A stretch of DNA of 64,000 bases, taken from a bacterium. GTDB lineage: Bacteria; Patescibacteriota; Patescibacteriia; Magasanikbacterales; GWA2-37-8. Each line of letters starts with the position of its first letter. The first letter of the stretch is position 1. Made by a program: the position numbers and the translations under genes. Under the pieces are notes generated by a model. That model saw nothing but the letters and a program-made list of their open reading frames with translations. It was not told the origin of the DNA and searched no databases. The DNA lies in the NCBI GenBank assembly GCA_043810165.1, contig JBDROJ010000019.1, positions 17,524 to 81,523 of the forward strand. Direction: 5' to 3'. Below, in pieces: positions 11,939-62,049 of this stretch.

Positions 11939-11943
11939 ATCTC

Positions 11944-12080: not shown

Positions 12081-12082
12081 AA

Positions 12083-28950: not shown

Positions 28951-29112
28951 AATTAATATTGTCATCGCCGACAAAGCATGCCTGTCATCGCGAGCGTTGT
29001 TTTCTTGTCATTGCGAGCGGTTCACTGTCATTGCGAGGAGCAAAGCGACGAAGCAATCTCGTGTTTCTATAGTGACGGGATTGCTTCGCTTACGCTCGCA
29101 ATGACAGACACA
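28951..29112. repeat. Nested palindromic repeat element, copy C
   Basis: cctgtcatcgcgagcg...cttgtcattgcgagcgg...ctgtcattgcgaggagcaaagcgacgaagcaatctcg[loop]gacgggattgcttcgcttacgctcgcaatgacag. Lies between parB and parA. Confidence 0.8.
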
Positions 29113-42405: not shown

Positions 42406-42437
42406 AAAAAATCCCTCTGTTTAGAGGGATTTTTTTA
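42406..42437. terminator. Bidirectional rho-independent terminator (peptide gene / convergent PHP gene)
   Basis: aaaaatccctct-gttt-agagggattttttt. Confidence 0.6.
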
Positions 42438-42440
42438 TGG

Positions 42441-43706
42441 CTAAATCAATCTGTTTTGCTGTGGTTTGTTAGTGCCATCCGGCAAAACATCTACCTTACC
42501 AAACTCACCATCATAACCTGGACTGACTTTTACTGCACCAGAGCGCATATTTTTTATGGCTAACCAAATATTTTTGTCACTGACATATTTTTTGATTTCT
42601 TTTTCGGTTGCAGATATTAAGATATGGAATTCATTGCCTATATTTTCGATCATTTGCTGGTATTCTTTTTCTACTTTCTTACTCTTTGGGCCAACAGTAA
42701 AAACGCGACCAATCACTTCACGCAAAGGAACAATGTATCGGTGCGGTATAAACTTTTCTTTTTTTATTTGTTCTTCGTCTCTGTCAGCCAATTCATCAAT
42801 TCGGTGCAAAACTCCAACTGTTAATTTCTTTTTACACTTAGGACAAAGATATTTTTCTTTTTTAGTTTGTTTTGGTTTAAAACAAATTTTACAATCACGA
42901 TGACCATCGTGGTGATACTTTCCTTCTTCTGGATAAAATTCAATTGTATATAAAAATTTTTCTTTGTCACCAGTTTCAATAATTTTTTTAATTTCTTGAT
43001 AAGTAATTTCTTTTTCACTGGCAAAAGCAAAAACATTAGCTTCCCTACCTAGATTATACAAACTATGTGCATCTGAATTTGAAATCAAAGTTATGTTATC
43101 TAGAGAACTTAAACAGTGATTCATTGTTGGATCGCTGGATAAACCAGTCTCAATGGCTTTAATATGTGGGGTTAATTCTTCAAAACATTCTTCTAAACTA
43201 TCGTAGCCAGATTTAGAACCAAAAATAGCAAACCAAGGCGTCCAAGCATGGGCTGGAATCATCATCATATCCTTGTCTATTTCCAAAATAATTTCTAATA
43301 TCTGCTTACCACTCAAACCCATAATAGGACGGCCATCTGATCTGATATTCACTCCTCTATCTTCCAATTCTTTATTGAACTTCTCCACCGCCTTGATATT
43401 TGGAGCCAAAAGCATGAGATGTAAACGTCTGCAAGAATCTTTATGCTTGTAAATACAAGAAATTTCAGTCCCTAAAATAAACCTGGTCTCACTACTATCA
43501 TCTTTTAATTTAAAAATGCCTTGATTCTCTTCTACCAAACTATCTTTAATATGCTCAAACCAATCCGGATGAGTAAAATCAGATGTAGATACTATATCTA
43601 TACCTTTGACCTCACAGGCTTTAGCAATTTTAGGCAACTCCAAATCTTTGGAACAAGAACGGGAATATTTAGAATGTATGTGTAAGTCTACTATTTTTTG
43701 AATCAT
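42441..43706 (-). CDS. PHP-domain protein with a C-terminal zinc finger (TIGR00375 / endonuclease-Q-like)
   Basis: N-terminal VDLHIHSKYSRSCS PHP motif with further His/Asp metal ligands (HAWTPW, NSDAHS). CPKCKKKLTVGVLHRIDE with an upstream C..C forms a Cys4 ribbon. 421 aa. Confidence 0.5.
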   Translation of the reverse strand: MIQKIVDLHIHSKYSRSCSKDLELPKIAKACEVKGIDIVSTSDFTHPDWFEHIKDSLVEENQGIFKLKDDSSETRFILGTEISCIYKHKDSCRRLHLMLLAPNIKAVEKFNKELEDRGVNIRSDGRPIMGLSGKQILEIILEIDKDMMMIPAHAWTPWFAIFGSKSGYDSLEECFEELTPHIKAIETGLSSDPTMNHCLSSLDNITLISNSDAHSLYNLGREANVFAFASEKEITYQEIKKIIETGDKEKFLYTIEFYPEEGKYHHDGHRDCKICFKPKQTKKEKYLCPKCKKKLTVGVLHRIDELADRDEEQIKKEKFIPHRYIVPLREVIGRVFTVGPKSKKVEKEYQQMIENIGNEFHILISATEKEIKKYVSDKNIWLAIKNMRSGAVKVSPGYDGEFGKVDVLPDGTNKPQQNRLI

Positions 43707-43710
43707 AATA

Positions 43711-44451
43711 TTATATTTTCCTCTCCTCTGGCCCGGTATATTCAGCTTCTGCTGTACTTAAACGACGTAAACCGTCTTTACTGTTCATCTCTTCGTAGAT
43801 ATGAGCTACCAAACCGGGCACGCGACCAATAATGAAAAATCCTTTGGCCATACGCCAATCAAAACCCATATCAGACATGACTGCACCCATAGCACCATCG
43901 ATATTAAGAGGTAGTCTTTTGGACAAAACCTGATTTAATTCTTTGTGTACTTTTTCAGCTAATTGACAATGTTTGCTATAAATACCAGTTTCTTTGGCTA
44001 CTTCAAACAGAGCTTGGCTACGTGGATCATGTTCTAAAATTTTATGACCATAACCTGGAATACGAATTTTCTGTTGTTTTAATTGCTTGATCAAACCAGC
44101 CACATCCGATTTGGCAACATTTTCTTGAAAAAATTTGGCCGCACCTTCAATAGCACTACCATGTAGTTTACCCATAGACAAGATACCAGCAGCCAAAGCC
44201 GTATGCATGCTATTACCAGTAGAAACAACTGTACGTGCTGTCATGGCCGAAGAAACGCCAATACCATGATCAATAGCAGCTGTAAACAAAGCGTTCATCA
44301 TTCTAGTCTGGTTAGTATCAGGTAACTCACCTTTTAAAACCAAAAAAATAGTTTCTGCAAAACTTTTTTCATGGATCAGATCTTTGAGATCGTAACCACG
44401 AATGGTTTCTTTCCCATCACTTACATTACTAATCGATGTTTTCCATTGCAT
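43711..44451 (-). CDS. Short citrate-synthase-family protein (citryl-CoA lyase-like)
   Basis: 246 aa with the citrate synthase signature IPGYGHKIL and an Asp-containing C-terminal region. Directly downstream of the SCS-like alpha and beta genes. Confidence 0.55.
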   Translation of the reverse strand: MQWKTSISNVSDGKETIRGYDLKDLIHEKSFAETIFLVLKGELPDTNQTRMMNALFTAAIDHGIGVSSAMTARTVVSTGNSMHTALAAGILSMGKLHGSAIEGAAKFFQENVAKSDVAGLIKQLKQQKIRIPGYGHKILEHDPRSQALFEVAKETGIYSKHCQLAEKVHKELNQVLSKRLPLNIDGAMGAVMSDMGFDWRMAKGFFIIGRVPGLVAHIYEEMNSKDGLRRLSTAEAEYTGPEERKI

Positions 44452-44462
44452 ATGGTTTTAAA

Positions 44463-45395
44463 TTATGAATAAGGTTTAGCTAGTTCAACTAAATGTTCGT
44501 ATGTATCGGCTATCATTACTCCTACTTCTGATAAAGCCTTTTCCTTTTCAGCCGCACCTTTACCCCGTTCTACAATCGCACCAGCATGACCGACATTCAT
44601 TCCCTCGGGTAAAACACCCGCAAACTTACCACCTATATATATGGCCAAAGGCTTGGTAAATTCTTGTTTATTTATCAAATCAACAATTTCAAACTCATAA
44701 CTACCACCGTGCTCTCCAAAAATCACTACCACTTTAGTTTGTTCATCTTTTTCAAACATTTTTAACAAGTCAGCGTAAGTAGTACCCATTAATAGATCTC
44801 CACCCACATGAACCACTGTACTTTGGCCTAGACCTGCTTTGCGAATCTGCCAAGCCAATTCATTAGTCATACCGCCGGAACGAGAAATTGCACCCACACT
44901 GCCTGGTTGGAATATTTCTTCAACCAACGGGCCACCCACTACCCCAACTCTGGCTTTGCCCGCTGAAATATACCCTAATGAACTTGGCCCTATAATACGA
45001 ATATCCTTTTCTTTGGCAGCTGCCAGACAATAAGCTGTGTCTTGAATAGGCACTCTTTCCGTCATGATATTTATAACAGAAATGTCATTTTCAATTGCTT
45101 CCATAATTGCCTGCTTGGTGGCAAAAGGAGGCACATAAATGGCGCTGGTGATATTGTGACGAGATTGCTTCGCTTCGCCTGCCTGCCGGACAGGCAGGCT
45201 CGCAATGACAGATAATACTTCGGCCACGGTATCAAAAACCGGCACGCCAAAAACTTGTTCACCGGCTTTGCCAGGGCGCACGCCACCTACCAATTTGGTG
45301 CCATAGTCAAGCATGGCTTGAGTGGCTCGCTGGCCTTCTTTGCCTGTTATACCTTGGATCAAAACTTTTGTATCTTGATTTATCAAAATACTCAT
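44463..45395 (-). CDS. Succinyl-CoA synthetase alpha-like subunit (CoA-binding; citryl-CoA synthetase small-subunit candidate) carrying an in-frame repeat-derived insertion
   Basis: MSILINQDTKVLIQGITGKEG...phospho-His loop MNVGHAGAIV. It aligns with SucD, except for an extra ~17 aa (SLPVRQAGEAKQSRHNI) encoded by a copy of the TGTCATTGCGAGC...GAAGCAATCTCG repeat. Confidence 0.7.
   Translation of the reverse strand: MSILINQDTKVLIQGITGKEGQRATQAMLDYGTKLVGGVRPGKAGEQVFGVPVFDTVAEVLSVIASLPVRQAGEAKQSRHNITSAIYVPPFATKQAIMEAIENDISVINIMTERVPIQDTAYCLAAAKEKDIRIIGPSSLGYISAGKARVGVVGGPLVEEIFQPGSVGAISRSGGMTNELAWQIRKAGLGQSTVVHVGGDLLMGTTYADLLKMFEKDEQTKVVVIFGEHGGSYEFEIVDLINKQEFTKPLAIYIGGKFAGVLPEGMNVGHAGAIVERGKGAAEKEKALSEVGVMIADTYEHLVELAKPYS
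45160..45215. repeat. Repeat element copy D, inserted in-frame inside the SCS-alpha-like CDS
   Basis: Minus-strand sense reads tctgtcattgcgagc-cctgcctgtccggcaggcagg-cgaagcgaagcaatctcgtcac. The family flanks are present around a perfect 8-bp-stem GC hairpin. Local GC is much higher than the surrounding gene. Confidence 0.7.
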
Positions 45396-46033
45396 ACTTG
45401 TTTGGAAAATATTTGTTTATTTTTCTTAATTTTCTTCAAGTCCCAATTCCACCATTCTAATTTTACCAACTTGTTTTTAGTTTGTTCCGAAAAACGATCG
45501 CTGACTTTTTTGGCCGGCACACCAGCCCACACTTCATAAGGACCAATCTTGGTGTTTTGTTTCACTACTGAACCGGCTCCCACTACAGCGCCATTACTAA
45601 TCTCTGTTCCAGATAATATCACTGAATTAGCTCCAATCCAAACATCATTTCCTATTTTTACTTCAGTGCCTAGGTCTTTAAAATCCTTGTCCCCTATAAT
45701 ATGCCTAATCGGGTAAGTAGTAATTTTTTTAACATCATGATCGTTGGTAGAGACAATAAAAACACTCCTGGCTATTGAACAAAATTTACCGATACTAATG
45801 CCATGTTCAGATGAAGCAAATAGCTCGGTAGAATTATTGCAATATGAATAATCTCCGATACTTACCTTGCCAGTTATAGCGACATTTCTTAACAACTGCA
45901 CTCTCTTGCCAAATCTAACCAAGCCCTTTAAAAAATCTTTCTTACAAATATATACCGGCGGTTTTAACTTTATACTTGGATTTTTTATCCTAATATAATT
46001 GAGAATAAAAAACTGTTTGATTATTTCCCACAT
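45392..46033 (-). CDS. Left-handed beta-helix (hexapeptide-repeat) acetyltransferase, CatB/Vat/MAT-like
   Basis: Hexapeptide repeats IGDYSY..., IGKFCSIARSVFIV, IGNDVWIGANSVILSGTEISNGAVVGAGSVV. Confidence 0.65.
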   Translation of the reverse strand: MWEIIKQFFILNYIRIKNPSIKLKPPVYICKKDFLKGLVRFGKRVQLLRNVAITGKVSIGDYSYCNNSTELFASSEHGISIGKFCSIARSVFIVSTNDHDVKKITTYPIRHIIGDKDFKDLGTEVKIGNDVWIGANSVILSGTEISNGAVVGAGSVVKQNTKIGPYEVWAGVPAKKVSDRFSEQTKNKLVKLEWWNWDLKKIKKNKQIFSKQV

Positions 46034-46042
46034 ACTTTTTAT

Positions 46043-47188
46043 TTAATTATTAATCATCTGTGCCAATATTTGGGCTGTTTGACTCATGGATACTTCTTTG
46101 CCAAATAATTTTACTTGCAGACCATTACGCTTTGCGCAATCCTTCATTAACCGCATGCCTTGTTCTTCATTTGGCCCGGCCCGACGAACAACTATTGGAT
46201 AATTAGGCTTAACTTCATCCAGGGCATTAATAATCCCTTGAAAAGTTTCAGCCACATCAGTAAAATTAGCCACCCCACCAGCAATCCACAAACCTTTTAA
46301 ACCAGGTCTAGATAAAACAACCTTGGCTAATTGGCAAACCTTTTCTTTAGGAGGATTACCAGAATATTCAGTATAATTAGCTGGCTTTAATCCAACCTTG
46401 TACAAAGCATCCATATTGGCGATACTAGCACCTCCACCAGAAAACAAAACCGCTATATCTCCATCCATTTCAATGTATCTACTGGCCGTGCCACGATAAT
46501 AGTCTTTGCCTTGATCAATTTTCTTTACCACTATTTCGCGCTCGGTAAGTGACCGACCCATCATGGTGCGCGCTTCTAGATCATTCCAATCTTCATGTCT
46601 AAATATGGCGTCCTCATCCAAAGCAATTTTTGCATCAACTGCCAACCACTTTCCATCTTTTGTTTTTACCAGGGGGTTAATCTCTACCAAACGAGCGTCT
46701 TCCTCTATAAAACACCTCCATAATTCCTTGGCCAAAGGAATATCGATATCTATCACTTCTTTTCTTATATCCAGGTAGTATTTCTCTATCTCTTGATCTG
46801 GAACAACTTCAATATCAACCCCACCTTGCTGACTGTAAACCAAAACCGGTTGTTTTTTGTTGGTATCATAGGTAATAGACAGGTAATATTCTTCTGCAAT
46901 ATCTAATTTCTCTTCAATGCGTACTGCCGTCACATACTGGTTCCTCACTTGCATGTCAAATAATTCTTTACAAGCTTGTTTAACTTGTTGGGCTGAAGAA
47001 CAAGGTCTGATAGCATTATTTTTACCACGACCTCCGGATAATACTTGCGCCTTTACCATTACATTCTCAGTCTCTAATCCTTCGTATGCTTGTACATAAT
47101 CATCACCACGCCTAACAACCACACCTTTGGGTATGGATATACCATATTTATCAAAAATATTTTTCCCTTCAAACTCGTAGAGATTCAT
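46043..47188 (-). CDS. Succinyl-CoA synthetase beta-like ATP-grasp subunit (citryl-CoA synthetase large-subunit candidate)
   Basis: MNLYEFEGKNIFDKYGISIPKG matches the SucC N-terminus. ATP-grasp and CoA-ligase domains. 381 aa. Confidence 0.7.
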   Translation of the reverse strand: MNLYEFEGKNIFDKYGISIPKGVVVRRGDDYVQAYEGLETENVMVKAQVLSGGRGKNNAIRPCSSAQQVKQACKELFDMQVRNQYVTAVRIEEKLDIAEEYYLSITYDTNKKQPVLVYSQQGGVDIEVVPDQEIEKYYLDIRKEVIDIDIPLAKELWRCFIEEDARLVEINPLVKTKDGKWLAVDAKIALDEDAIFRHEDWNDLEARTMMGRSLTEREIVVKKIDQGKDYYRGTASRYIEMDGDIAVLFSGGGASIANMDALYKVGLKPANYTEYSGNPPKEKVCQLAKVVLSRPGLKGLWIAGGVANFTDVAETFQGIINALDEVKPNYPIVVRRAGPNEEQGMRLMKDCAKRNGLQVKLFGKEVSMSQTAQILAQMINN

Positions 47189-47194
47189 AATATC

Positions 47195-47521
47195 TTAAAA
47201 ATCCATTCTAAATTCCTTGCCCCAATCTTTAAAACCTAAACTCTCATACCATTGATGCACATGAGTTTTAAAATAACGGGTAGTGCCAATTAGTTTGTAA
47301 CAATCTCGGTCTTTGGCCTCTTGAATTACAGCTTTAACAAGCTCGGTGCCAACACCTTGCTTGCGGTAATCTTCCTCAACAAATACATATTCTAACAGTC
47401 CGTATGGCTGTTCACGCACATTATATATTAAATACAAAAAAGCATAGCCAGCGATTCTTTCTCCATCTTTGGCTAAAATTTTAATAGCCTTAGAAGCTTG
47501 TTCTTGTTTTTCTATTTGCAT
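47195..47521 (-). CDS. GNAT-family N-acetyltransferase
   Basis: 108 aa with the acetyl-CoA-binding motif RKQGVGTELVKAV. Confidence 0.6.
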   Translation of the reverse strand: MQIEKQEQASKAIKILAKDGERIAGYAFLYLIYNVREQPYGLLEYVFVEEDYRKQGVGTELVKAVIQEAKDRDCYKLIGTTRYFKTHVHQWYESLGFKDWGKEFRMDF

Positions 47522-48465
47522 ATAATTTCTTTTAAAATTTTTCCTAATTTAATTGTGCAAAGACCGCCAGCTTCTTTCTCATAATCGCCTGATACTATAT
47601 TGTAATCCACTAAATCAGTTTCATTATATTCAATTAAGTCCCACTTCTTTTTATTATACTTTTGTTTTTGGTCTTCACTTAATTTTGCATTATTAAATAC
47701 AACACTGTCTAATTTACGCGGTAGATAAGTCTGCAATTGTGAAATAAATTCACTTAATTTAGTAGGTCCTGTCTCTCCGTCTATCTCATAAGCATTACCA
47801 ACTATATATATAAATTTAGCTGAAGAATCGGTCATGGCTTGCTTTAAACCCTGGGGCAACAGGGTAGCCACAATACTACAATATAAACTACCCGGACCGA
47901 TGAATATATAATCAGCTTGCTCAATCGCCTGTTTAGCACCCGCATAAACCCGTGCATCCGGCTCCAACCAGGCTTTTTTGATTCTTATTTTTTTATCATA
48001 ATCGGGCCGGTCAATTAGGCCCTCTGTTTTTATAATATCGCCATTTTCTAATTCAACTGCCAAATCAGTTTTGTCTAAAGTTGTTGGATAAACCTTGCCC
48101 ACCGCCTGCACGACCTGTTCTAAAGCTCGTACCGCGCAGACATAGTCTCCCCCATACTGTTCAGCCAATACTAAAAATAAATTGCCCAAATTATGGCTGT
48201 CTAATTTACCAACATTCTTAAATCTGACACGATTAAACATTGCCTTGAGCATGCTATAATCATGCATGGACATGGCCAAAACTGCACGCAGAATATCACC
48301 CGGAGGCAGAGTGTCAAATTCATGACGTAAACGGCCAGAAGATCCGCCAGAATCGCTCATGGAAACAACCGAAGAAATATTTAATAAATCTAAATTCTGT
48401 TTTAAGGCTTGAGTGGTAATGGCTGAACCATTGCCTCCGCCTATTACTACTGCATTTTTTTTCAT
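47512..48465 (-). CDS. YvcK/CofD-family protein (UPF0052 gluconeogenesis factor-like)
   Basis: MKKNAVVIGGGNGS...SMSDSGGSSGRLR matches the YvcK/CofD GGGxG...DDGGSSG signature. The ORF-track N-terminal extension (to 48534) runs into repeat copy E and is probably not translated. Confidence 0.6.
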   Translation of the reverse strand: MKKNAVVIGGGNGSAITTQALKQNLDLLNISSVVSMSDSGGSSGRLRHEFDTLPPGDILRAVLAMSMHDYSMLKAMFNRVRFKNVGKLDSHNLGNLFLVLAEQYGGDYVCAVRALEQVVQAVGKVYPTTLDKTDLAVELENGDIIKTEGLIDRPDYDKKIRIKKAWLEPDARVYAGAKQAIEQADYIFIGPGSLYCSIVATLLPQGLKQAMTDSSAKFIYIVGNAYEIDGETGPTKLSEFISQLQTYLPRKLDSVVFNNAKLSEDQKQKYNKKKWDLIEYNETDLVDYNIVSGDYEKEAGGLCTIKLGKILKEIICK

Positions 48466-48477
48466 AAATTTTTGTTT

Positions 48478-48640
48478 TGTCATTGTGAGGAGCGTAGCGT
48501 TGCTGACATTGCGAGGAGCGTAGCGACGAAGCAATCTCGCCTAGTTATATTGTAACGAGATTGCTTCGCTTACGCTCGCAATGGCAGGAAGACTTGGCTC
48601 GCAATGACAGCAACGCTACGCTCCTCGCAATAACAGATTA
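48478..48640. repeat. Nested palindromic repeat element, copy E
   Basis: ttgtcattgtgaggagcgtagcgttgctgacattgcgaggagcgtagcgacgaagcaatctcg[loop]cgagattgcttcgcttacgctcgcaatggcag...gctcgcaatgacagcaacgctacgctcctcgcaataacag. Confidence 0.8.
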
Positions 48641-49294
48641 TAAACCTAAATATTTAGAAATCTTTTTATCTTCCAAAGAATCAACCACCAAATCAGCCTG
48701 ACTAAAATCTCCAAAACTCCATCTCTTATCAGGCACAGCAATACAAGTCATTCCAGCTCGCTTTGCTGACACCACCCCATTTTCTGCGTCTTCAAAAACT
48801 AAACAGTCTTCAGGTTTCACTTGCAGACGCTCGGCTGTATACAGATAAATCCTTGGATCAGGCTTGCCCACAAAATTTACATGATCAGCTGATACTAATT
48901 CGTCAAAATACTCATGCCAACCAAAACGACCCACAACTAATTTGACACTGTCCAACGGTGCTCCTGAAGCGATTGCTTGCTTTATTTTCTCTTTCTTAAT
49001 ATTTCTAATTAAGTCAACTACTCCAGGCATAATTTTTGTTTTTTTCTGATAAAGTTCTTCTATCCTCTTATTTCTAAAGACAAATAAATCATCAATCGGT
49101 TGATCTATATTAAATTTTTCTTTCAACCAGGCCATACCTTCTTCTACACTCCTACCGGTTAAATATTTTATGGTATCTTCGGTTAACTCAAAGTCTATCT
49201 GTGAAAACAACTCCTTATCCAATTCAATCCAATGGATCATGCTGTCCACCAGCAAACCATCCATGTCATAAATTACCGCTTTAAATTTATTCAT
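48638..49294 (-). CDS. HAD-superfamily hydrolase (subfamily IA, beta-phosphoglucomutase-like)
   Basis: KAVIYDMDGLLVDS motif I with downstream motifs II/III. Confidence 0.65.
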   Translation of the reverse strand: MNKFKAVIYDMDGLLVDSMIHWIELDKELFSQIDFELTEDTIKYLTGRSVEEGMAWLKEKFNIDQPIDDLFVFRNKRIEELYQKKTKIMPGVVDLIRNIKKEKIKQAIASGAPLDSVKLVVGRFGWHEYFDELVSADHVNFVGKPDPRIYLYTAERLQVKPEDCLVFEDAENGVVSAKRAGMTCIAVPDKRWSFGDFSQADLVVDSLEDKKISKYLGL

Positions 49295-49296
49295 AT

Positions 49297-51120
49297 TTAT
49301 TCTACAGTTACGCTCTTGGCTAAATTTCTCGGTCTATCCACGTCTTTTCCCAACAAAACAGCCATATGATAAGCAAACAACTGTAAAGGTATGGAATTTA
49401 ATAATGGCTCCAATAATTCCATGGTCTTTGGCACATAAATCAAATCATCGGCAAGTTCTTTTGCCTGTTCATCATCTTCATTAACCACCAAAATTACCGG
49501 AGTTTCTCTGGCTCTAACTTCTTCAATATTGCTCCTAACTTTTTCATACAACTGATTCTTAGTCATCAATGCCACTACCAGCAAATCCGGAGACAATAAC
49601 GCATTGGCACCATGCTTCATCTCGCCAGCTGGATAACATTCACTATGAATATATGATATTTCTTTTAATTTATGAGATCCTTCCAATGCAACAGGAAAAT
49701 TAATGCCTCTCCCCAAATATAGTGCGTCACTAAAACCCTTATATTTATTAACTAATTGTTTAATGGTGTCATTAGTTTCTAAAACCTTATTCATTTTTTC
49801 TGGGATCTCTAATAAAGCTTGCAATAAGCGCTGTCCTGTGGCCAAACTGACCCTGTTTAAACGGCCGAACTGTAAAGCTAATAATATCATTATGGCTATC
49901 ATATTGGTGTAAGCTTTTGTGGAAGCAACTGCCAGCTCCGGACCGGCATGAATATAACTACCGCCATCTGTCTCGCGTGCGATAGTAGAACCGACAACAT
50001 TGACTATGCCTCTAACAAACGCCCCGCGACGCTTGGCCTCCCGCAAGGCCGCCAATGTATCAGCGGTTTCCCCGGATTGAGACACGGCAAATACCAAAGT
50101 ATTTTTATTAACAATGGGATCGCGATAACGAAATTCACTGGCCACGTCAACTTCAACCGGAATTCCTGACAATCTTTCAAAAGCGTACTTGCCGATCATG
50201 GCTGCATAATTGGCTGTACCACAGGCAATAAAAATAACCCGATTTATCTGATGCATTTGCTCTTCAGTCATATTCAAACCGCCCAAATGAGCGGTGCCCT
50301 CTTCCAAATTATATCGTCCGCGAATTGCATCTTCAAATACAGTGGGTTGGTCAAAAATTTCTTTAAGCATAAAATGATCATAGCCTTGCTTTTGAGCTTG
50401 ATCTTCATCCCAATCAATATGCTCAACCTGTTTGGTTATTTCTTTGTCTTTTAAAGTATATGTTTTGTAGCCTTCATAATTAATTTCAACAATTTCCCCA
50501 TCATCAAGAAAAAATACCTCCTTGGTATGAGTTAAAAGAGGAGATGTGTCTGAAGCCACAAAGTATTCCCCTTGATCAAATCCAACCACCAACGGACTAC
50601 CCAAACGAGCGGCCACCAGCTTGCCTTCCTCTTTGCAATGCATGGCCACCAAGCCATAAGTTCCTCTCACTTTTGTCAAGGCCTTTTCCATGGCCAAGCG
50701 CAAATCACCTTCATAAAAATACTCAATCAGATGAGCCAGTACTTCTGTATCAGTTTCTGAAACAAATTTATGGTCTTTTAAATATTCATCCTTTAATTCG
50801 CGATAATTTTCAATTATTCCATTGTGTACAACCACCAGATCCTTGGTACAACCCCAATGAGGATGGGCATTTTCATCAGTAACACCGCCGTGCGTGGCCC
50901 AGCGAGTATGAGCTATGCCTACTGTACCGCGCAGGCTCGCATTTTTTAGCTTTGCCTCCAAATTACCTATTCTTCCTGATGATTTTTCAATGCAAATCTC
51001 ATGATCTTGGCAGATTGCCACGCCAGCACTGTCATAACCCCTATATTCAAGCCGGCGCAAACCTTGAATTAATATGGGCAAAGCTTGTTTTTTACCAATG
51101 TATCCAATTATTCCACACAT
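49297..51120 (-). CDS. glmS: Glutamine--fructose-6-phosphate aminotransferase
   Basis: N-terminal MCGIIGYIG (Ntn Cys), two SIS domains, and C-terminal ...SVTVE. Confidence 0.9.
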   Translation of the reverse strand: MCGIIGYIGKKQALPILIQGLRRLEYRGYDSAGVAICQDHEICIEKSSGRIGNLEAKLKNASLRGTVGIAHTRWATHGGVTDENAHPHWGCTKDLVVVHNGIIENYRELKDEYLKDHKFVSETDTEVLAHLIEYFYEGDLRLAMEKALTKVRGTYGLVAMHCKEEGKLVAARLGSPLVVGFDQGEYFVASDTSPLLTHTKEVFFLDDGEIVEINYEGYKTYTLKDKEITKQVEHIDWDEDQAQKQGYDHFMLKEIFDQPTVFEDAIRGRYNLEEGTAHLGGLNMTEEQMHQINRVIFIACGTANYAAMIGKYAFERLSGIPVEVDVASEFRYRDPIVNKNTLVFAVSQSGETADTLAALREAKRRGAFVRGIVNVVGSTIARETDGGSYIHAGPELAVASTKAYTNMIAIMILLALQFGRLNRVSLATGQRLLQALLEIPEKMNKVLETNDTIKQLVNKYKGFSDALYLGRGINFPVALEGSHKLKEISYIHSECYPAGEMKHGANALLSPDLLVVALMTKNQLYEKVRSNIEEVRARETPVILVVNEDDEQAKELADDLIYVPKTMELLEPLLNSIPLQLFAYHMAVLLGKDVDRPRNLAKSVTVE

Positions 51121-51130
51121 AATTTTAAAA

Positions 51131-51628
51131 TTAATATTTTATCCCTAATTCAAATGCTTTTTGATTTTCTTCCCAGCCAATTTTAGCGCTCAATTTTTTA
51201 CTTAATGAATCACTCAACAAATCCAAGTTCATTATATTTTGATCAGCCAATTTTTTTCCTAATAAGCCGAGAAAAAATATATTGTATGATTGTTCTTGAA
51301 TCTGGTTTTGTTTAAAATTTTCCAAATAATCTTCAATATACAAAACTTCAGCGTCTTCAATATAATGTTGAGTTCGTTCTCTGGCTTGTTCTGACATAAT
51401 CAATAAAATATCAGGTTTTGTAAATCTGGGATAAACAATTTCTTTATTACTAATCTGCACAAAAGCCAATGACACGCCACCGCGCTGTTCCAAACCAAAA
51501 TTAGGAATATCAGTAACATAAAATCCGTTAGCAAAAGCAGTTTGTGTTAATAGGTTGGCGATTGTTTGCAAGCCTTGCCCGCCGTCGCCGGCAAAAATAA
51601 TTTTTATGTTCATATTATAATTCACCAA
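51131..51628 (-). CDS. 2-oxoacid:ferredoxin oxidoreductase gamma subunit
   Basis: IIFAGDGGQGLQTIANLLT is the POR gamma signature. 165 aa. Confidence 0.7.
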   Translation of the reverse strand: MVNYNMNIKIIFAGDGGQGLQTIANLLTQTAFANGFYVTDIPNFGLEQRGGVSLAFVQISNKEIVYPRFTKPDILLIMSEQARERTQHYIEDAEVLYIEDYLENFKQNQIQEQSYNIFFLGLLGKKLADQNIMNLDLLSDSLSKKLSAKIGWEENQKAFELGIKY

Positions 51629-52289
51629 TTTTAAAAACTTCTTTAATGCCGTCTAGACGATCCAAGGTATCCTTACCTCTTGTCCTCCAATTAGTGGGGC
51701 AAAAAGATAAAACTTCAACCATGGCAAAATGTCCAGCTTGTTGAGTTTTAACGGCTTTTTCAAGATATTCCATAAGATCTTTTGGGTCATTTACAGCTGT
51801 GCGCGCCAAATATGCATCTTTATTGGCTACTTGCTTTATTAATTCAAGTCCGAACAAAGGCTCTTGATCTATGCCTTGCGGATTAGTACTGGTAATTTGT
51901 CCGACCAAACTGGTGGGAGCAGTCTGCCCTCCGGTCATGGCATAAAGTGTATTATTTATCACAATAATACTTACAGCTTCATCGCGCTTGGCCGAATGCA
52001 ATAAATTTTGCAAGCCGATAGCATAAGCTCCGCCATCTCCGGTCAAGCCCAAACTGATTGAATCGGGTTGAGCGCCTTTAAAACCAATCATAGTAGGCGT
52101 AACCCGGCCATGGTGAGTTTGAAAGGTATTGATGGGCAAAAAATTAATTGCTAAAAGCGAACAGCCGATATCAAGACCAAGTACAGCCTGATCAATCAAG
52201 CCTAATTTTTCTAATACTTTATTCAGAGTCATTAATACCATGGGATAACCGCAACCTGGACAAAATTTTGACAATTTGGGATTATACAT
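51615..52289 (-). CDS. 2-oxoacid:ferredoxin oxidoreductase beta subunit (TPP-binding)
   Basis: CPGCGY...GDGG-containing TPP-binding motif (LTGDGGAYAIG). Confidence 0.7.
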   Translation of the reverse strand: MYNPKLSKFCPGCGYPMVLMTLNKVLEKLGLIDQAVLGLDIGCSLLAINFLPINTFQTHHGRVTPTMIGFKGAQPDSISLGLTGDGGAYAIGLQNLLHSAKRDEAVSIIVINNTLYAMTGGQTAPTSLVGQITSTNPQGIDQEPLFGLELIKQVANKDAYLARTAVNDPKDLMEYLEKAVKTQQAGHFAMVEVLSFCPTNWRTRGKDTLDRLDGIKEVFKIGEL

Positions 52290-53307
52290 ATCTTTTTACA
52301 ATTTCTTCTGGCTCTATACCCAGACCTGGATAATGCCAGCCATTTAATTCAATATTAATTTGAGAATCCAGATCATCTCTAACCAGCCTTTCTAGCTGGC
52401 CTGCTGATGATTCAATCACTGTAATTTTTTTGATTCTAGATGCGACTTCACTCAATTGTTTTTTGGGAAAAGGACGAATACTGATCGGGCGGAACAAACC
52501 AACTTTCTTTCCTTGTTCACGCAAATCATCCACCGCCTGTTTAGCGCTTGCCCCGACTATGCCATGGGCTATAAATAATTCTTCAGCATCTTCAACCATA
52601 TATTGTTCAGCCGATTCTATTTGAGGCCTAATTTTATCAAAATCCTGCTGATCTTTATTTAATTTTTCATATAATTCTTCCTCTAAAGTATATATACTGG
52701 GCAGATGGACATTCTGTCCGGGACTAACCAGAGGATATGATTTAACATTTTCCTGATTAGGCTGTCTGACAAGATCAACCACGCCTTTCATTTTTAGCAA
52801 GTACCCATCGGTCAAAACTATGGCGGGAAAACGATATTTCCAGACATCATTAAAAGCCTTGATTGTTAAATTATAAAGTTCATTTAAGTTGGAAGGAGAA
52901 TATACCAAGCGCATGCCTTCGCCATTACCCCCATAGCAAGACAATATTACTTCTTGCTGAGAATAAATTACAGTGCCAGAACTTGGGCCACCGCGCTGGC
53001 CAATAATAGCCACAAAAGGCAGACGCATACCTTCGGCCATGCTCATGCCATCTTGCATTAAAACATGACCAGGACCGGCCGTGGCTGTAAAAGCCTTTTG
53101 CCCGCCTAATACTGCGCCGCACACTGCAAAACCTGCTGATATTTCATCTTCAGTCTGTAGATATGGCAAACCGCGCCCAATCCAACCGCTAAACACCTCG
53201 CTACTTGGAGTAATCGGATAGCCATACATGATATCAGCGCCTGCATCCACGCAAGCTTGCAAAGTCACCTCGGCTCCGGTTAATAATTGTTTTTTATTTT
53301 CAGTCAT
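52282..53307 (-). CDS. 2-oxoacid:ferredoxin oxidoreductase alpha subunit
   Basis: POR alpha domains. The likely start is MTENKKQLLTGAEV (the ORF-track extension to 53376 overlaps the upstream gene). No delta/ferredoxin subunit is adjacent. Confidence 0.65.
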   Translation of the reverse strand: MTENKKQLLTGAEVTLQACVDAGADIMYGYPITPSSEVFSGWIGRGLPYLQTEDEISAGFAVCGAVLGGQKAFTATAGPGHVLMQDGMSMAEGMRLPFVAIIGQRGGPSSGTVIYSQQEVILSCYGGNGEGMRLVYSPSNLNELYNLTIKAFNDVWKYRFPAIVLTDGYLLKMKGVVDLVRQPNQENVKSYPLVSPGQNVHLPSIYTLEEELYEKLNKDQQDFDKIRPQIESAEQYMVEDAEELFIAHGIVGASAKQAVDDLREQGKKVGLFRPISIRPFPKKQLSEVASRIKKITVIESSAGQLERLVRDDLDSQINIELNGWHYPGLGIEPEEIVKRYV

Positions 53308-53309
53308 AA

Positions 53310-54080
53310 TTACAAAAATAATTTTTTTCTTTTGTCCGCTTCTTCCAATTCTTCTTTGGTATTCACGCCAAACCACTCTCTCCTGTCCTGCAATTTAACA
53401 ACTCGCACAGACAAGCCTTCTTTTTGAGCCATCATAAAGGCAGTAGGCAACCCATACTCGCCCAGCTTTTCAATAATCGGCATATTGGGAAACATATTCT
53501 TATACCACCTTCTATTAAAACAAAAAGTTCCGGTGCTGGTTTCAGTGGTGTGCCTATTCTCTTCGGTCAGGTATTCTTTCTCAATTATATCTATCTCATG
53601 GCCGTTTCTAATTATACGCCCGTAAGCAAAAGAAGAAGAATCAATGCTAGTGGAAAGCAAAGATACCATGGCTTGTTCCTCAATATGCTGATTTATTAAA
53701 TTTTCAATTGTAGTTGATTTAAAAAAGGCACTATCATCTCCGTTCATGACCAATATATTATCAACTTCATCAGGTAATGCTTTTATACCAATATACGTGG
53801 CGTGGGCTGTGCCCAACTGTTCTTCTTGCACCGCATAAGTAACCTTGTCACCAAAAAAATCCATAACTTTTTCTTTGTGAAAACCAACTACCAAAGAAAT
53901 TTTTTCTTTGGTAAACCCAAGCCGGTATAAGGTGTCGACAATATAACTGACGATTGGCTTTCCTCCTATTTCCAGCATCGTCTTGGGCGTATCATTGCAT
54001 TGCAGACGCGTGCCTTGTCCAGCTGACAAAACCACGGCTCCAAAATTACCTATTATCCCTGATATATTCATATATTTCAT
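53310..54080 (-). CDS. Sugar-1-phosphate nucleotidylyltransferase, GlmU N-terminal (uridylyltransferase)-like, without an LbH acetyltransferase domain
   Basis: AVVLSAGQGTRL, PKTMLEIGGKPIV, QEEQLGTAHAT and a GDD-like NGDDSAF. 256 aa. Confidence 0.6.
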   Translation of the reverse strand: MKYMNISGIIGNFGAVVLSAGQGTRLQCNDTPKTMLEIGGKPIVSYIVDTLYRLGFTKEKISLVVGFHKEKVMDFFGDKVTYAVQEEQLGTAHATYIGIKALPDEVDNILVMNGDDSAFFKSTTIENLINQHIEEQAMVSLLSTSIDSSSFAYGRIIRNGHEIDIIEKEYLTEENRHTTETSTGTFCFNRRWYKNMFPNMPIIEKLGEYGLPTAFMMAQKEGLSVRVVKLQDRREWFGVNTKEELEEADKRKKLFL

Positions 54081-54726: not shown

Positions 54727-54882
54727 ATGGGCGTTTCTGTCATTGCTAGCGTAGCGCTATTGTCATTGCGAGGAGCGGAGCGACGAAGCAATCTCGCTGC
54801 CCTAGAACCAACGAGATTGCTTCGCTTACGCTCGCAATGACAGAAACGCTATACAGGCTCGCAATGACAGATTTGACTAATT
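54727..54882. repeat. Nested palindromic repeat element, copy F
   Basis: gtttctgtcattgctagcgtagcgctattgtcattgcgaggagcggagcgacgaagcaatctcg[loop]cgagattgcttcgcttacgctcgcaatgacagaaacgct...gctcgcaatgacag. Confidence 0.8.
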
Positions 54883-58032: not shown

Positions 58033-58692
58033 TTATCTTATTCCGTTCCATTCGGCAATAAATTCATCAATAAAACTTAACAAAAATTCGCTCCTTCTCT
58101 TGGCTATTTTTTTGCCAGTTTTGGTATTCATCATCTCCGACAATCTCAAAGACTTCTCAAAAAAATAATTCAAGCTGGTGCCTTCATATTTTTTCTTCTG
58201 ATAATCTAATTTATTTAAACCAGTACGCGGTTTAATATCTGGGTCATACATCATGCGTCCGATTTGTCCGCCTGTTGCAAAACCCCTGGCTATACCTATT
58301 GCTCCAACAGTCTCAAGCCAATCCGCATCTTGAATAATTTTGCCTTCAATGGTTGATGGCACTTTGGTTTCACTACCCTTGTATTGCGATTCTGATACTA
58401 TACGCATAATCCGGCGCTGTGTATCTCGATTTATTTCCAAAATATCCATCATGGCATCTAATACCAAATTACCCTTGTATTCATTATAATCATGCTTTTT
58501 GTAATCACCAAGGTCATGCACCAAAGCGGCTAATTCAATCACCGATAGATTTCCACCTTCTTCCCTTTGCAATATCCTGGCCATGCGCAAAACCCTTTGG
58601 GCATGATACCAATCATGACCTGTTGGCTCGCCCCAAAGCTTGGATTTTACATAAGTGGCCACTCTTTTCACCAATATTTCTGATGTAGTCAT
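58033..58692 (-). CDS. HD-domain phosphohydrolase
   Basis: HD motif H...HD (WYHAQRV...VHDLGD). The likely start is MTTSEILVKR; the longer ORF-track N-terminus overlaps the 5S rRNA. Confidence 0.6.
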   Translation of the reverse strand: MTTSEILVKRVATYVKSKLWGEPTGHDWYHAQRVLRMARILQREEGGNLSVIELAALVHDLGDYKKHDYNEYKGNLVLDAMMDILEINRDTQRRIMRIVSESQYKGSETKVPSTIEGKIIQDADWLETVGAIGIARGFATGGQIGRMMYDPDIKPRTGLNKLDYQKKKYEGTSLNYFFEKSLRLSEMMNTKTGKKIAKRRSEFLLSFIDEFIAEWNGIR

Positions 58693-58751
58693 ATATATGT
58701 TATTTTCTGTGTTTAGCTTAGCAGAAATAGTGAAAATTGGCAATAAAAAAA

Positions 58752-58876
58752 GACCATTGTCCTGGCGCCGGCTTACTTTTGCTTTACAGCTATCATCAGC
58801 GTTGGGAAGCTTAACTACCGTGTTCGGGATGGGAACGGGTGTAACCTTCTCACTTGAGGCACCAAGACAATGGTCT
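58752..58876 (-). rRNA. rrf: 5S ribosomal RNA
   Basis: Helix I inverted ends agaccattgtc...gacaatggtct. The minus-strand sense contains CCCGTTCCCATCCCGAACACGGTAGTTAAGC, the 5S loop B/C consensus. Confidence 0.8.
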
Positions 58877-59212
58877 CTTGTTTTTTCCAGGGTATTGTTT
58901 TTAAGCACTGCTTAGTGTTTTTGTCGTATGCTCGGCTTATTAGTACGCCTCGGCTTAACTCTTTACAGAGCTTAGACCTGGCGCCTATCAACCTCGTAGT
59001 CTACAAGGAGCCTATAACGAATATTAATCTTGAGGACGGCTTCACGCTTAGATGCTTTCAGCGTTTATCCGCGCCAAACGTAGCTACCCAGCAATGCCCT
59101 TGGTAGGACAACTGGTACACTAGAGGTTCGTCCACTCCGGTCCTCTCGTACTAGGAGCAGGTCCTCTCAATATTCAACGCCCACAGCGGATAGGAGACCG
59201 AACTGTCTCACG

Positions 59213-59974
59213 CATGTTCTTCCATTATTACTAATGGCACAGACTATACCTTCATCCTCTCCAACAACAATGGAGGAGGAGCTGACGTGTGATAAGTGAT
59301 ATAAGTTATTTTTTGAACACCTATCTCATCCTTCTGTCTGCCAGAAACAGACATCCAGAATCAGTCGTTACGGGGGTATAATTTATGTTGTCTTAAAAAA
59401 TTCTTCAAAACATCAGAGGTATTAGTTCTCTTTTTGGAATAATTTAATTCCTTGAACTTATCAACCAATTCAGCTGCCTTAACAAATTTTTCTATGGAAA
59501 ATTTTCCTTGTAGAATTTTATTTATTTGAAAAGCAACTAAAACATGTTCTTTTTTGAGAATTATATAAGGCTTCAATAATTTCAAAATCTTAATTACCGA
59601 CTTAAAACCAACTATGGTATATTCGGTCATATCATCATTGCGATCTCTGATATAACCTACTCCTGCAAATGTTTCTTTAAGCCATTCTAAATGACTCTTT
59701 ATGACTCTTTTTATCAGTCTTCTGGTAGAAAACTACGCTGGCACGGATCTGAAATCCATACACATAGTCTTTTCTACGGACTAATTGGAACATTATACAG
59801 CCATCTCCATCTAGAAATCCTGCGATATAAGATTTTGTTGTGGACGAAATTATTGACATAAATCAACCTTCCCACGGCATTGCCCTCTAAAAAGTTCGGT
59901 AAATTTAGTAGGGTTTCACCGTTATGAGTCAGATTTATTGTATCATATTTCTACGATAGAACGCAATGTAGTTT
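59213..59974 (-). mobile_element. Intron (probably group I) in 23S rRNA at the E. coli ~2593 (I-CreI-type) site, carrying a LAGLIDADG homing endonuclease ORF
   Basis: The conserved 23S run ...CAGAACGT|CGTGAGACAGTT... is split. Plus 59201-59212 ends ctgtctcacg and the exon resumes at 59975 acgttctgaaccc. R/S-like elements (CCGTAACGACTGA, GGTATAGTCTG) sit in the 3' part. Confidence 0.7.
59361..59859 (-). pseudogene. LAGLIDADG homing endonuclease (single-motif, I-CreI-like) disrupted by a 10-bp tandem duplication
   Basis: IAGFLDGDGC motif in ORF 59677..59859. A second ORF 59361..59630 continues the protein. Removing one copy of the tandem atgactcttt|atgactcttt (59691-59710) fuses them into one ~163-aa frame (...KKSHLEWLKETFAGVGYIRDRNDDMTEYTIVGF...). 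Confidence 0.7.
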
Positions 59975-60007
<33 letters not shown>

Positions 60008-60020
60008 TGGCGAACAGCCA

Positions 60021-60080
<60 letters not shown>

Positions 60081-61374
60081 CGCCGTCTATATGGACTATC
60101 GGGCGAGATCAGCCTGTTATCCCCGGAGTAGCTTTTATCCGTTGATCTTCCACCTTCCTATGTAGGGTGGTCGGTTCACTAACTTCTGGTTTCCCAACTG
60201 CTCGGGTTGTAGCCCTTGCAGTAAAGCTGGCTTTTGCGTTTGCACGTCCAGCTCGGTTTCCATCCGAGCTAAGCCAACCTTTGTAAACGCCTCCGTTACT
60301 TTTTGGGAGGCATCCGCCCCAGACAAACTACCCACCAGACACTGTCTCCCCTTCCTGATTCAAGGAAGGAAATTAGGTACAAAACTAAACAAGGGTGGTA
60401 TCTCACTGGCGATCCGAAGATCTTCCACCTATACTGAACATGTTTAGCCTTATACCAATATCAAGTTGTAGTAAAGCTTCACGGGGTCTTTTCGTCCGGC
60501 TGTGGGTAACCGGCATCTTTACCGGTCTTGCAATTTCACCGAGTCCCTCGTTGAGACAGTCTCCCCATCGTTACGCCATTCGTGCGGGTCGGAACTCACC
60601 CGACAAGGAATTTCGCTACCTTAGGACGATTATAGTTATCGCCGGCGTTCATCAGCGCTTCAGTTTCCTGCTTTGTCATAAAGACTAACAAGTCGCCTTA
60701 ACGTTCTGACACTGGCCAGGCGTCGCCCCCTATACTTCAGCTTACGCTTTTGCAGGGAGCTGTGTTTTTGATAAACAGTCGCAGGGAGTCTTTTGTTGTA
60801 GCCCCGATTTGAGTCGGGGCGGGCCTTATCCCGAAGTTACGGCCGCTGTTTTGCCGAGTTCCTAAACGAGGGTTATCTCGTACGCCTTGGTCTTCTCGAC
60901 CTACCTACCTGTGTTGGTTTACGGTACGGTTACCTATAGCCTAGCGGTTTCTAGCTTTTCTAGGCATTCTCTTACCTCAAATTGACTCTACCCGAAGGCT
61001 TTGTCTCCATCTTGCGATACGTGTATAACCGAAACACGCTTAAAGATTAAAAATGCGCACTAAAAACCAAACTATAAGCAGTGCAGGAATATTAACCTGC
61101 TGATCCATCGGTTACGCCTTTCGGCCTGGCCTTAGGACCGACTAACCCTGGGATGATTCACGTTGCCCAGGAAACCTTGGGTTTTCGGCGGGCAGGATTC
61201 TCACCTGCCTTTTTGTTACTTATGCCTGCATACTCGCTTCCTAACGCTCCACCAGTCCTCGCAGATCCGGCTTCAACGCAGATAGGAATGTTCCTCTACC
61301 ACGCCTCGACTAAGTCGAGACATTCGCAGCTTCGGTACCATGTTTAGCCCCGTTACATTCTCGGCGCTAAAACT

Positions 61375-61441
<67 letters not shown>

Positions 61442-62012
61442 GAGAATTAAAACCACCTTGCGTGCACTTAACATGGATTTTGGGACCTTAGCTAGCGATC
61501 TGGGCTGTTTCCCTTTTGACTATGAAGCTTAGCCCTCACAGTCTGACTCCTAAGTTTTTGACTACCGGCATTCGGAGTTTGATTGAGGCGGGTATCCCGA
61601 AGGACCCCGACCTCATCCAGTGCTCTACCACCGGCAGGAACACTTAAGGCTAGCCCTAAAGCTATTTCGAGGAAAACCAGCTATTACCGAGTTCGATTGG
61701 AATTTCTCCGCTATCCACAGCTCATCCCCGCGTGTTGAACGGCGCGTGGGTTCGGACCTCCCCCCGATTTTCATCGGGGCTCATCCTGGCCATGGATTGC
61801 TCACTCGGTTTCGGGTCGTGTAACAGAAACTATTGACGCTGGTTAAAACTCGCTTTCGCTGTGCCTACGGACCATAGGCCCTTAAGCAAGCTACTGCTAC
61901 ACACTCGCAGGCTCATTCTTCAATAGGAATACTATCATCCCGACTAAGTCGGGACTTTAGCTCTTTGTAAGCATATGGTTTCAGATACTATTTCATCGCC
62001 CTCAACGGGCTA

Positions 62013-62049
<37 letters not shown>

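Follow-up and report, generated by a model that had tools for sequence, protein, structure and literature searches.

A set of four genes in a 64,000-nucleotide stretch of contig JBDROJ010000019.1 (GenBank assembly GCA_043810165.1; the whole stretch is hereafter termed the window) probably encodes a split, two-enzyme system for ATP-dependent citrate cleavage of the Hydrogenobacter type, by which scavenged citrate would be converted into acetyl-CoA and oxaloacetate for biosynthesis. The open reading frames (ORFs) lie on the minus strand and, in order of transcription, encode a β-type subunit resembling CcsA (46043..47188, 381 residues, with ATP-grasp_2 and Citrate_bind domains), a left-handed β-helix (LbH) acetyltransferase of the Vat/CatB, or xenobiotic acetyltransferase (XAT), class (45392..46033, 213 residues, Hexapep), an α-type subunit resembling CcsB (44463..45395, 310 residues, with CoA_binding, Ligase_CoA and Succ_CoA_lig domains and a GHAGA motif), and a truncated protein of the citrate synthase fold, Ccl (43711..44451, 246 residues, a Citrate_synt domain with IPGYGHKIL). 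The coordinates agree exactly with those of a preliminary description of this DNA and the domain calls match it, and E-values of 1e-40 to 1e-90 exclude chance matches. The 4-nucleotide overlap between the LbH and α genes that was also described exists, as an ATGA junction; the remaining gaps in the string measure 6 nucleotides (between ccsA and the gene for a GNAT acetyltransferase), 9, 11 (ccsB/ccl) and 4 (between ccl and an EndoQ-like gene). The host is a Magasanikbacteria-like bacterium of the candidate phyla radiation (CPR) with a reduced genome, since bacterial 23S and 5S rRNAs are present in the window and the nearest relatives of its proteins belong to Candidatus Magasanikbacteria and further Patescibacteria. 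The direct observations, which are taken in turn below, concern the identities of the genes, their residues, synteny and a clade-specific gene association.

The β-like subunit is predicted, with support from several features of its sequence, to be of the citryl-CoA synthetase (CCS)/ATP-citrate lyase (ACL) type and not a succinyl-CoA synthetase (SCS) β subunit, SucC. In Pfam scans (E ≤ 0.01) it matched ATP-grasp_2 (PF08442, 138 bits) and Citrate_bind (PF16114, 119 bits, cutoff 26.8) and did not match Ligase_CoA (PF00549); by contrast, Escherichia coli SucC, run through the identical scan as a control, matched PF00549 (114 bits) and not PF16114. The scores against the NCBIfam SucC models are under the cutoffs (TIGR01016, 251.8 vs 375.55; NF001913, 250.5 vs 370). 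Among PDB structures the best match is CcsA of Hydrogenobacter thermophilus (6hxq_B, 221 bits, 38% identity), followed by Chlorobium AclB (171 bits) and Thermus SCS β (166 bits), and with the C-terminal, substrate-binding half as the query all citrate-acting enzymes, i.e. CcsA (119 bits), Methanothrix ACLY-A (87 bits), AclB (84 bits) and human ACLY (76 bits), rank above the SCS β subunits, all of which score 59 bits or less. The preliminary description had suggested looking for ACL-specific residues; at four substrate-site motifs the subunit has the ACL/CCS state in each case (GGGAS, EYSGNP, ANFT and VRRAGPN, vs NGAGLA, DVGGGA, GGIVR and VRLEGNN in E. coli SucC). Alignment with human ACLY places its EYSG309, AN346-F-T348 and VR-R379 on the motifs of the β subunit; G309, N346, T348 and R379 of human ACLY are citrate ligands, the residue list reportedly being that of Sun et al. 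from 2010.

An exhaustive search of cluster representatives with the β-like subunit returned 575 clusters at E ≤ 1e-30, and the motifs were surveyed in an alignment of 146 sequences (9 references and 137 representatives), of which 74, including all of the nearest ones, have the complete ACL/CCS motif set. The top-ranked representatives are all of the ACL/CCS type down to ∼215 bits; SucC-type motifs start at 202 bits, and below this score SucC-type sequences are interleaved with ACL/CCS-type and intermediate ones. In neighbor-joining (NJ) trees calculated with the motif columns removed (100 bootstraps), the ACL/CCS and SucC types are split in the observed tree, with the β-like subunit grouping with CcsA/AclB and away from SucC-type sequences. 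The clade defined by the most recent common ancestor of the window protein and H. thermophilus CcsA is free of SucC-type taxa in 61 bootstraps and includes a single one in a further 38, so that 99 of the 100 have no more than one of 25. The Citrate_bind domain, the motifs and the NJ grouping thus all oppose a position for the β subunit inside SucCD.

Two motif classes intermediate between the ACL/CCS and SucC types were seen in the same survey. One (EIGGNP / V-x-NNTR / FR[SVI]xG; representatives P0298, P0307, P0316, P0322, P0330 and P0374) occurs in Actinomycetes and 'Humimicrobiia' and has the Joint Genome Institute (JGI) label 'SCS beta/citryl-CoA synthetase large subunit'; the other (DTSGNP / x-x-ASQ) is represented by P0312, P0334, P0354, P0357 and P0370.

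The 246-residue protein is predicted, again with support, to be a citryl-CoA lyase (CCL). Its scores exceed the cutoffs of both the NCBIfam citryl-CoA lyase model NF004869 (302 bits vs 212) and NF004866 (253 bits vs 245), and its match to H. thermophilus CCL (6hxp; 243 bits, 48% identity) is far better than that to the best citrate synthase (89 bits). The alignment with H. thermophilus CCL runs end to end, the two proteins having in common a deletion of ∼120 residues relative to E. coli GltA. The GYGHxI signature of citrate synthases, on which the preliminary description had relied, is present as IPGYGHKIL within the Citrate_synt domain, and the catalytic His/His/Asp triad is intact, aligning with H265/H306/D363 of GltA (Met1 numbering) and being kept in all eight of the relatives examined.

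For the α subunit, the description as a citryl-CoA synthetase subunit stands in part: the CoA-binding domains are present, as is the GHAGA phospho-His loop, the histidine of which (H270) is invariant in 14 family members, but the protein is indistinguishable from SucD by its sequence. Scores are under both NCBIfam SucD cutoffs (277.5 vs 336 and 269.8 vs 353.2). The single sequence scores 224 and 219 bits with archaeal SucD vs 179 bits with CcsB, and a family profile gives 326 and 302 bits for archaeal SucD, 292 bits for H. thermophilus CcsB and at most 278 bits for bacterial and mitochondrial SucD; identity is 46% to SucD of both E. coli and A. pernix. Neither the single sequence, the family profile nor a C-terminal fragment separates CcsB from SucD in this case, and the α subunit is therefore called CcsB by virtue of its operon partnership. 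Ahead of the phospho-His loop, the α subunits of CPR bacteria and DPANN archaea have in common an insertion of 3 residues that is missing from all aligned SucD sequences.

The window ccsB gene also contains an in-frame, GC-rich palindromic repeat unit (45150..45209, minus strand), which adds ∼14 residues (SLPVRQAGEAKQSR) that neither 13 relatives nor the SucD proteins of E. coli and A. pernix possess. The insertion has 58% GC, a perfect 9-bp palindrome and a predicted hairpin of −25.5 kcal/mol (z = −3.1), and its arms match intergenic repeat clusters elsewhere in the window. The repeat core, the 12-mer GTCATTGCGAGC, has 20 copies in the window (≤1 mismatch) vs 0.17 expected; the clusters occupy five intergenic gaps (11947-12074, 20597-20742, 28984-29105, 48574-48608 and 54739-54868), where tandem 23-nucleotide units are followed by long imperfect palindromes.

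The gene order was compared with that of 33 related loci (denoted by L numbers). About 18 loci of the Magasanikbacteria type have the order GlmS-(HAD)-CofD/YvcK-GNAT-CcsA-CcsB-[variable gap]-Ccl, often then followed by a TIGR00375/EndoQ-like gene, and the usual string in CPR loci is GlmU(N-half only)-GlmS-HAD-CofD/YvcK-GNAT-CcsA-CcsB-Ccl. The order CcsA-CcsB-gap-Ccl, with all three genes unfused, is also found in four DPANN archaeal loci (L017-L020, including Aenigmatarchaeota), where the proteins are 48-54% identical to those of the window, a likeness that suggests inter-domain transfer among episymbionts. The gap cargo in relatives includes HAD-like proteins, secreted proteins of ∼310-340 residues, a membrane protein, a 150-residue GNAT (L014) and thioredoxin/DsbD (L018). 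Users of acetyl-CoA are thus found nearby in other loci too, with the GNAT inside the operon in L014 and a GNAT near L018, and in L020 (Aenigmatarchaeota) a class I/II aminotransferase (8787-9367) begins 28 nucleotides after Ccl, where it is a possible oxaloacetate-to-aspartate sink. The signal-peptide proteins of ∼310-340 residues, which lie between CcsB and Ccl in four Magasanikbacteria loci (L011, 7051-7983; L013, 6890-7912; L016, 6134-7102; L021, 7023-7961), have no Pfam match and carry an N-terminal motif AGAGFVPS-GIWFS.

The gene interposed between ccsA and ccsB encodes a predicted LbH acetyltransferase, Vat/CatB-like and of the XAT class. Its scores are under the family cutoffs (Vat, 102.9 vs 300; CatB, 89.7 vs 350; TIGR03308, 112.6 vs 201.65) and its best PDB matches are VatD (81 bits) and CatB8 (80 bits). 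With VatD, VatA and CatB/PaXAT it shares the left-handed β-helix, a histidine in the catalytic loop that follows the second coil (His99, invariant in a 9-member clade and aligning with that of the CatB8 'GH') and a C-terminal WWNW-type motif (EWWNW at residue 193). It differs from VatD, VatA and CatB in having a shorter loop after the catalytic histidine and a 2-residue insertion before PYEVWAG; it scores far under the cutoffs of those families, and its clade occurs almost exclusively in the CCS operon context.

The position of the LbH gene between α and β, as given in the preliminary description, holds, but the gene is a recurrent accessory, kept by a sub-lineage, and does not belong to the core of the citrate-cleavage system; it was not present in 25 of the related loci examined. 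There are ∼8 close LbH relatives (41-49% identity in the clade alignment, 42-51% by BLASTP). The order CcsA-LbH-CcsB is found in L027, as part of GNAT-CcsA-LbH-CcsB-...-Ccl, and in L029; L030 and L031 have cargo-LbH-CcsB, L028 has CcsA followed by 7.6 kb of cargo, LbH and a pentapeptide-repeat gene, and two short contigs (L032 and L033) have DUF5063-LbH-pentapeptide. Five of the seven contexts outside the window are thus at or beside the CcsA|CcsB junction, at its ccsB-proximal end, with the LbH gene either overlapping ccsB or 1-17 nucleotides away from it. For a negative control, 80 loci of broad XAT relatives (438 kb), obtained from a metagenome scan with the LbH-clade alignment and generic patterns, were inspected, and none has CcsA, CcsB or Ccl neighbours. 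Given the contexts of the relatives and this control, the LbH clade is specifically and durably tied to the ccsB-proximal side of the junction. An insertion private to this genome is ruled out: the nearest LbH relatives occupy the same junction. The cargo of L028 (876-9426) and of L031-L033 comprises a TraD-like fragment, DUF5063, an FtsH-like AAA/M41 protein, an MsbA/HlyB-type ABC exporter, a methyltransferase, LbH and a pentapeptide-repeat protein; such cargo in the CcsA|CcsB gap looks like mobile-element-derived material within a metabolic operon.

It may be that the LbH gene is itself mere mobile cargo, e.g. a xenobiotic or antibiotic acetyltransferase gene at an insertion-tolerant site of a well-expressed operon, functionally unrelated to citrate cleavage, and we give this slightly less than an even chance. 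The XAT-class hallmarks and the best matches to VatD and CatB8 fit such an explanation, as do the many loci from which the gene is missing and the readiness with which the operon admits unrelated insertions at both ccsA|ccsB and ccsB|ccl. In L028 and L031-L033 the LbH gene accompanies those for the ABC exporter, methyltransferase, pentapeptide-repeat protein, DUF5063 and TraD-like fragment, and in the window it has the highest codon-usage distance of the string, a measure that is noisy for short genes. By contrast, the placement at or beside the CcsA|CcsB junction, always ccsB-proximal, in five of seven contexts, the identity of only 41-49% between clade members and the window protein, which implies long retention, and the zero of 80 generic XAT loci with CCS neighbours argue against simple cargo. 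A further candidate explanation, that LbH and the ABC protein form a streptogramin-resistance pair analogous to Vat plus Vga (ABC-F), was rejected, because the ABC protein belongs with the MsbA/HlyB-type exporters, in which permease and ATPase are fused, rather than with the ABC-F protection proteins. The CCS-specific LbH clade is an example of an accessory acetyltransferase captured in an operon predicted to produce acetyl-CoA.

CCS and CCL constitute a characterised system in the Aquificae, that of H. thermophilus having reportedly been described by Aoshima et al. in 2004. The window system resembles that of H. thermophilus in its unfused three-polypeptide architecture, Citrate_bind domain, RRxGP and N-x-T motifs, GHAGA loop and His/His/Asp triad. 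There are also differences, including in the hosts, H. thermophilus being an autotroph that uses the reductive tricarboxylic acid (rTCA) cycle, whereas the window host is a non-autotrophic CPR bacterium with a reduced genome. The EYSG/ANFT motifs of the window β subunit are nearer to ACL than are the DIGG/ANNT of H. thermophilus CcsA; the CPR/DPANN α subunits, at 296-310 residues and nearer to archaeal SucD by score, are shorter than the 353-residue H. thermophilus CcsB; and the window CCS genes sit in a GlmS/CofD/GNAT string and are split by the LbH gene. With AclAB (Chlorobium limicola, 6hxj; Methanothrix ACLY-A/B, 6hxi) the likeness is in the predicted chemistry, via a citryl-CoA intermediate, and in the GGGAS/EYSG/ANFT/VRRxGPN motifs, which the window β subunit has in common with AclB and human ACLY. 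However, in AclAB the α module is fused to CCL to give an AclA of ∼600 residues, whereas the window α subunit has 310 residues with ccl a separate gene 11 nucleotides further on, and in relatives of the window inserted genes separate α from Ccl. SucCD likewise has an ATP-grasp β subunit and a CoA-binding, phospho-His α subunit with homologous folds and mechanism; among the differences are the replacement of the SucC motifs in the window β subunit and the 3 residues ahead of the phospho-His loop that SucD lacks when aligned with the CPR/DPANN α subunits.

Citrate-cleavage systems of this kind are already known, and homologs of CCS and CCL in both CPR and DPANN have previously been reported. For a Gracilibacterium a two-subunit ACL has been predicted, and scavenging of citrate to give acetyl-CoA and oxaloacetate proposed (PMC6851277). 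A 2022 preprint found CPR/DPANN sequences annotated as SCS or citrate synthase to be monophyletic with CCS or CCL (10.1101/2022.10.25.513756), and some close homologs already bear the JGI label 'citryl-CoA synthetase large subunit'. The module that the preliminary description considered notable is real, but it is less notable than suggested because of these reports. We found no earlier report in the literature of the linkage with GlmU(N-half)/GlmS/CofD/GNAT, of the CCS-specific LbH clade or of the repeat insertion in ccsB.

In the proposed scheme, CcsAB would convert citrate, ATP and CoA into citryl-CoA (with ADP and Pi), which Ccl would then cleave to acetyl-CoA and oxaloacetate. The system would be used anaplerotically, in an organism with no evident tricarboxylic acid (TCA) cycle, the acetyl-CoA probably being used by the adjoining acetyltransferases and the oxaloacetate being available for conversion to aspartate or pyruvate. 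What we infer is the substrate, the direction of reaction, where the citrate comes from and what becomes of the acetyl-CoA and other products; the likelier role is that citrate from a host or the environment is scavenged. The fermentative-looking context given in the preliminary description was confirmed, class I fructose-bisphosphate aldolase (FBA), phosphofructokinase (PFK) and 2-oxoacid:ferredoxin oxidoreductase (OFOR) all being present in the window. Its suggestion of looking for other TCA enzymes was followed within the window, where none of the ORFs scanned is recognisable as an aconitase, isocitrate dehydrogenase, malate dehydrogenase, fumarase or citrate transporter. Because no other TCA enzyme is recognisable there, a role in CO2 fixation is unlikely, and the system most likely does not serve it. 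Local use of acetyl-CoA by acetyltransferases is plausible because the genes are co-directional and near-contiguous with the GlmU N-half/GlmS/HAD/CofD/GNAT block. A Magasanikbacteria-like genome, together with a large uncultured CPR/DPANN clade, would thus carry a bona fide split citrate-cleavage system; annotation pipelines often label CCS and CCL as succinyl-CoA synthetase and citrate synthase, and as a consequence of such mislabelling metabolic reconstructions would wrongly credit these organisms with TCA steps or rTCA carbon fixation.

Several points weigh against citrate cleavage as proposed. The exact split between ACL/CCS and SucC types was recovered in only 48 of the 100 NJ bootstraps with the motif columns removed, and the β-subunit trees are NJ trees only, with few named references. 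The α subunit scores slightly higher with archaeal SucD than with H. thermophilus CcsB, and its gene has the private 14-residue repeat-derived insertion. Citrate specificity in the CPR/DPANN clade is predicted from conserved residues only. With regard to metabolism, the window yielded no citrate transporter; the search covered 64 kb of the genome, such that TCA enzymes could be encoded elsewhere; and the adjacent OFOR could by itself supply acetyl-CoA or succinyl-CoA. Finally, reactions of the ACL/CCS type operate near equilibrium and may therefore run either way in vivo.

The last point bears on the possibility that the system works in the synthetic direction, with Ccl condensing acetyl-CoA (e.g. 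from OFOR) and oxaloacetate to citryl-CoA, from which CcsAB, with ADP and Pi, would give citrate, CoA and ATP, in effect a citrate synthase that conserves ATP in a fermentative cell. The enzymes would be identical to those for cleavage, and the energetics are permissive in that the ACL-type reaction is near equilibrium, a value of about −5.9 kJ/mol being given for citryl-CoA synthesis (10.1101/2022.10.25.513756). An OFOR able to make acetyl-CoA is in the same string in the window, L007 and L008, and the host appears to depend on substrate-level phosphorylation. However, the window has no recognisable aconitase or isocitrate dehydrogenase as an outlet for the citrate, oxaloacetate would be required stoichiometrically, and the conserved GNAT and LbH neighbours consume acetyl-CoA, so its supply fits better than its removal. 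The characterised CCS/CCL and ACL enzymes act physiologically in the direction of cleavage, and we regard net synthesis as rather unlikely. An ordinary succinyl-CoA synthetase, making ATP from OFOR-derived succinyl-CoA beside an unrelated lyase or synthase, is very improbable, for although many sources label close homologs 'succinyl-CoA synthetase beta subunit', SucC and SucD models are the top NCBIfam matches by score, the α subunit scores highest with archaeal SucD and an OFOR without resolved specificity lies nearby, both subunits are under the SucC/SucD cutoffs, β has the Citrate_bind-positive, Ligase_CoA-negative pattern opposite to that of E. coli SucC, ACL/CCS residues at all four motifs and a grouping apart from SucC-type sequences, and ccl is kept with the α/β pair across CPR and DPANN. 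Of the two alternatives in the preliminary description, CcsAB plus Ccl is thus upheld over ordinary SCS, on the Citrate_bind domain, the sub-cutoff SucC score, the best match to CcsA, the motifs and the CCL match.

For citrate cleavage, the neighbouring genes offer a concrete and testable idea of the destination of the acetyl-CoA, through the linkage with GlmS, CofD/YvcK, GNAT and a truncated GlmU. The GNAT acetyltransferase, which had been described as following the gene set, is real (47195..47521, minus strand, 108 residues, Acetyltransf_1 62 bits) but lies upstream of the β-like gene with respect to transcription; in most loci of the Magasanikbacteria type this mini-GNAT lies directly upstream of CcsA. 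The GlmU-like uridylyltransferase (53310..54080, minus strand) matches GlmU models over positions ∼2-234 of ∼450 and has no C-terminal LbH domain, and counterparts of the GlmU N-half, of 237-252 residues and without Hexapep, occur in L001 (1-425) and L004 (1863-2576). Acetylation of glucosamine 1-phosphate (GlcN-1-P) must then be encoded elsewhere, since this protein lacks the LbH acetyltransferase domain, and the conserved mini-GNAT possibly performs it. The mini-GNAT was also considered as a GNA1-like glucosamine 6-phosphate acetyltransferase, a candidate set aside on weak, generic PDB matches to polyamine acetyltransferases (33 bits) and NCBIfam matches at the ArsN1/RimI level. Extending this line of thought, the Magasanikbacteria CCS/CCL might be a dedicated generator of acetyl-CoA for cell-envelope amino-sugar synthesis, scavenged citrate being cleaved beside GlmS, the GlmR-like CofD/YvcK regulator and a GlmU deprived of its acetyltransferase half, with the mini-GNAT and, in one sub-lineage, the LbH protein replacing the GlcN-phosphate N-acetylation of GlmU or carrying out a related sugar acetylation. 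We consider this doubtful; if true, citrate cleavage in episymbiotic bacteria would be tied, in a manner not described before, to the provision of peptidoglycan precursors. A variant in which the LbH protein takes citryl-CoA itself as the acyl donor is even more speculative.

Between the mini-GNAT and GlmU-like genes, all on the minus strand, are those for a CofD/YvcK-family protein (47512..48534; UDP-GlcNAc-binding, GlmR-like; TIGR01826, 206 bits, cutoff 196), a HAD-IA hydrolase of the β-phosphoglucomutase family (48638..49294; HAD_2 110 bits; TIGR02009 124 bits, under the cutoff of 153), GlmS, i.e. glutamine–fructose-6-phosphate aminotransferase (49297..51120; homologs have GATase_6/7 and SIS domains), which is conserved upstream of the CCS genes, and the γ, β and α subunits of OFOR (51131..53376; POR, TPP_enzyme_C, POR_N and PFOR_II). 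The CofD and GNAT genes overlap by 10 nucleotides. The listed TTG start of the CofD/YvcK gene (48534) reads through a copy of the repeat, the peptide 'LRRYAPRN' being repeat-derived; translation probably begins instead at the ATG near 48465 (MKKNAVVIGGG), which gives 317 residues as in relatives. OFOR also precedes GlmS in L007 and L008, and with respect to its substrate class, i.e. supply of acetyl-CoA or succinyl-CoA, the window OFOR is below all NCBIfam equivalog cutoffs. The co-directional string further upstream comprises PFK, class I FBA, TrmB, a 216-residue ORF, the GlmU-like gene and the three-subunit OFOR.

Downstream, 4 nucleotides after Ccl, is the EndoQ-like gene (42441..43706, minus strand; TIGR00375/MJ0043_C, with a PHP domain and a zinc ribbon), which is kept downstream of Ccl in many Magasanikbacteria loci (L001, at 11682-12956, L006, L007, L010, L023 and others), sometimes beyond several kb of inserted genes; a metabolic link is not obvious. 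A terminator-like hairpin (42406..42435, minus strand; a 13-pair stem and T-run) follows this gene, and a long-stem terminator-like hairpin is also present after FBA. Terminator-like sites in the window are not enriched over shuffled sequences, and because their total count is not above that in shuffles the hairpins are weak evidence, only consistent with operon ends. With regard to the rRNA genes, the 23S match (59937-62616, minus strand) spans ∼2680 nucleotides vs the 2925 positions of the model, i.e. it is a compact 23S rRNA, and the 5S rRNA (58760-58866, minus strand) is overlapped by a mechanically called ORF (58033-58908), at least the 5' part of which is probably spurious.

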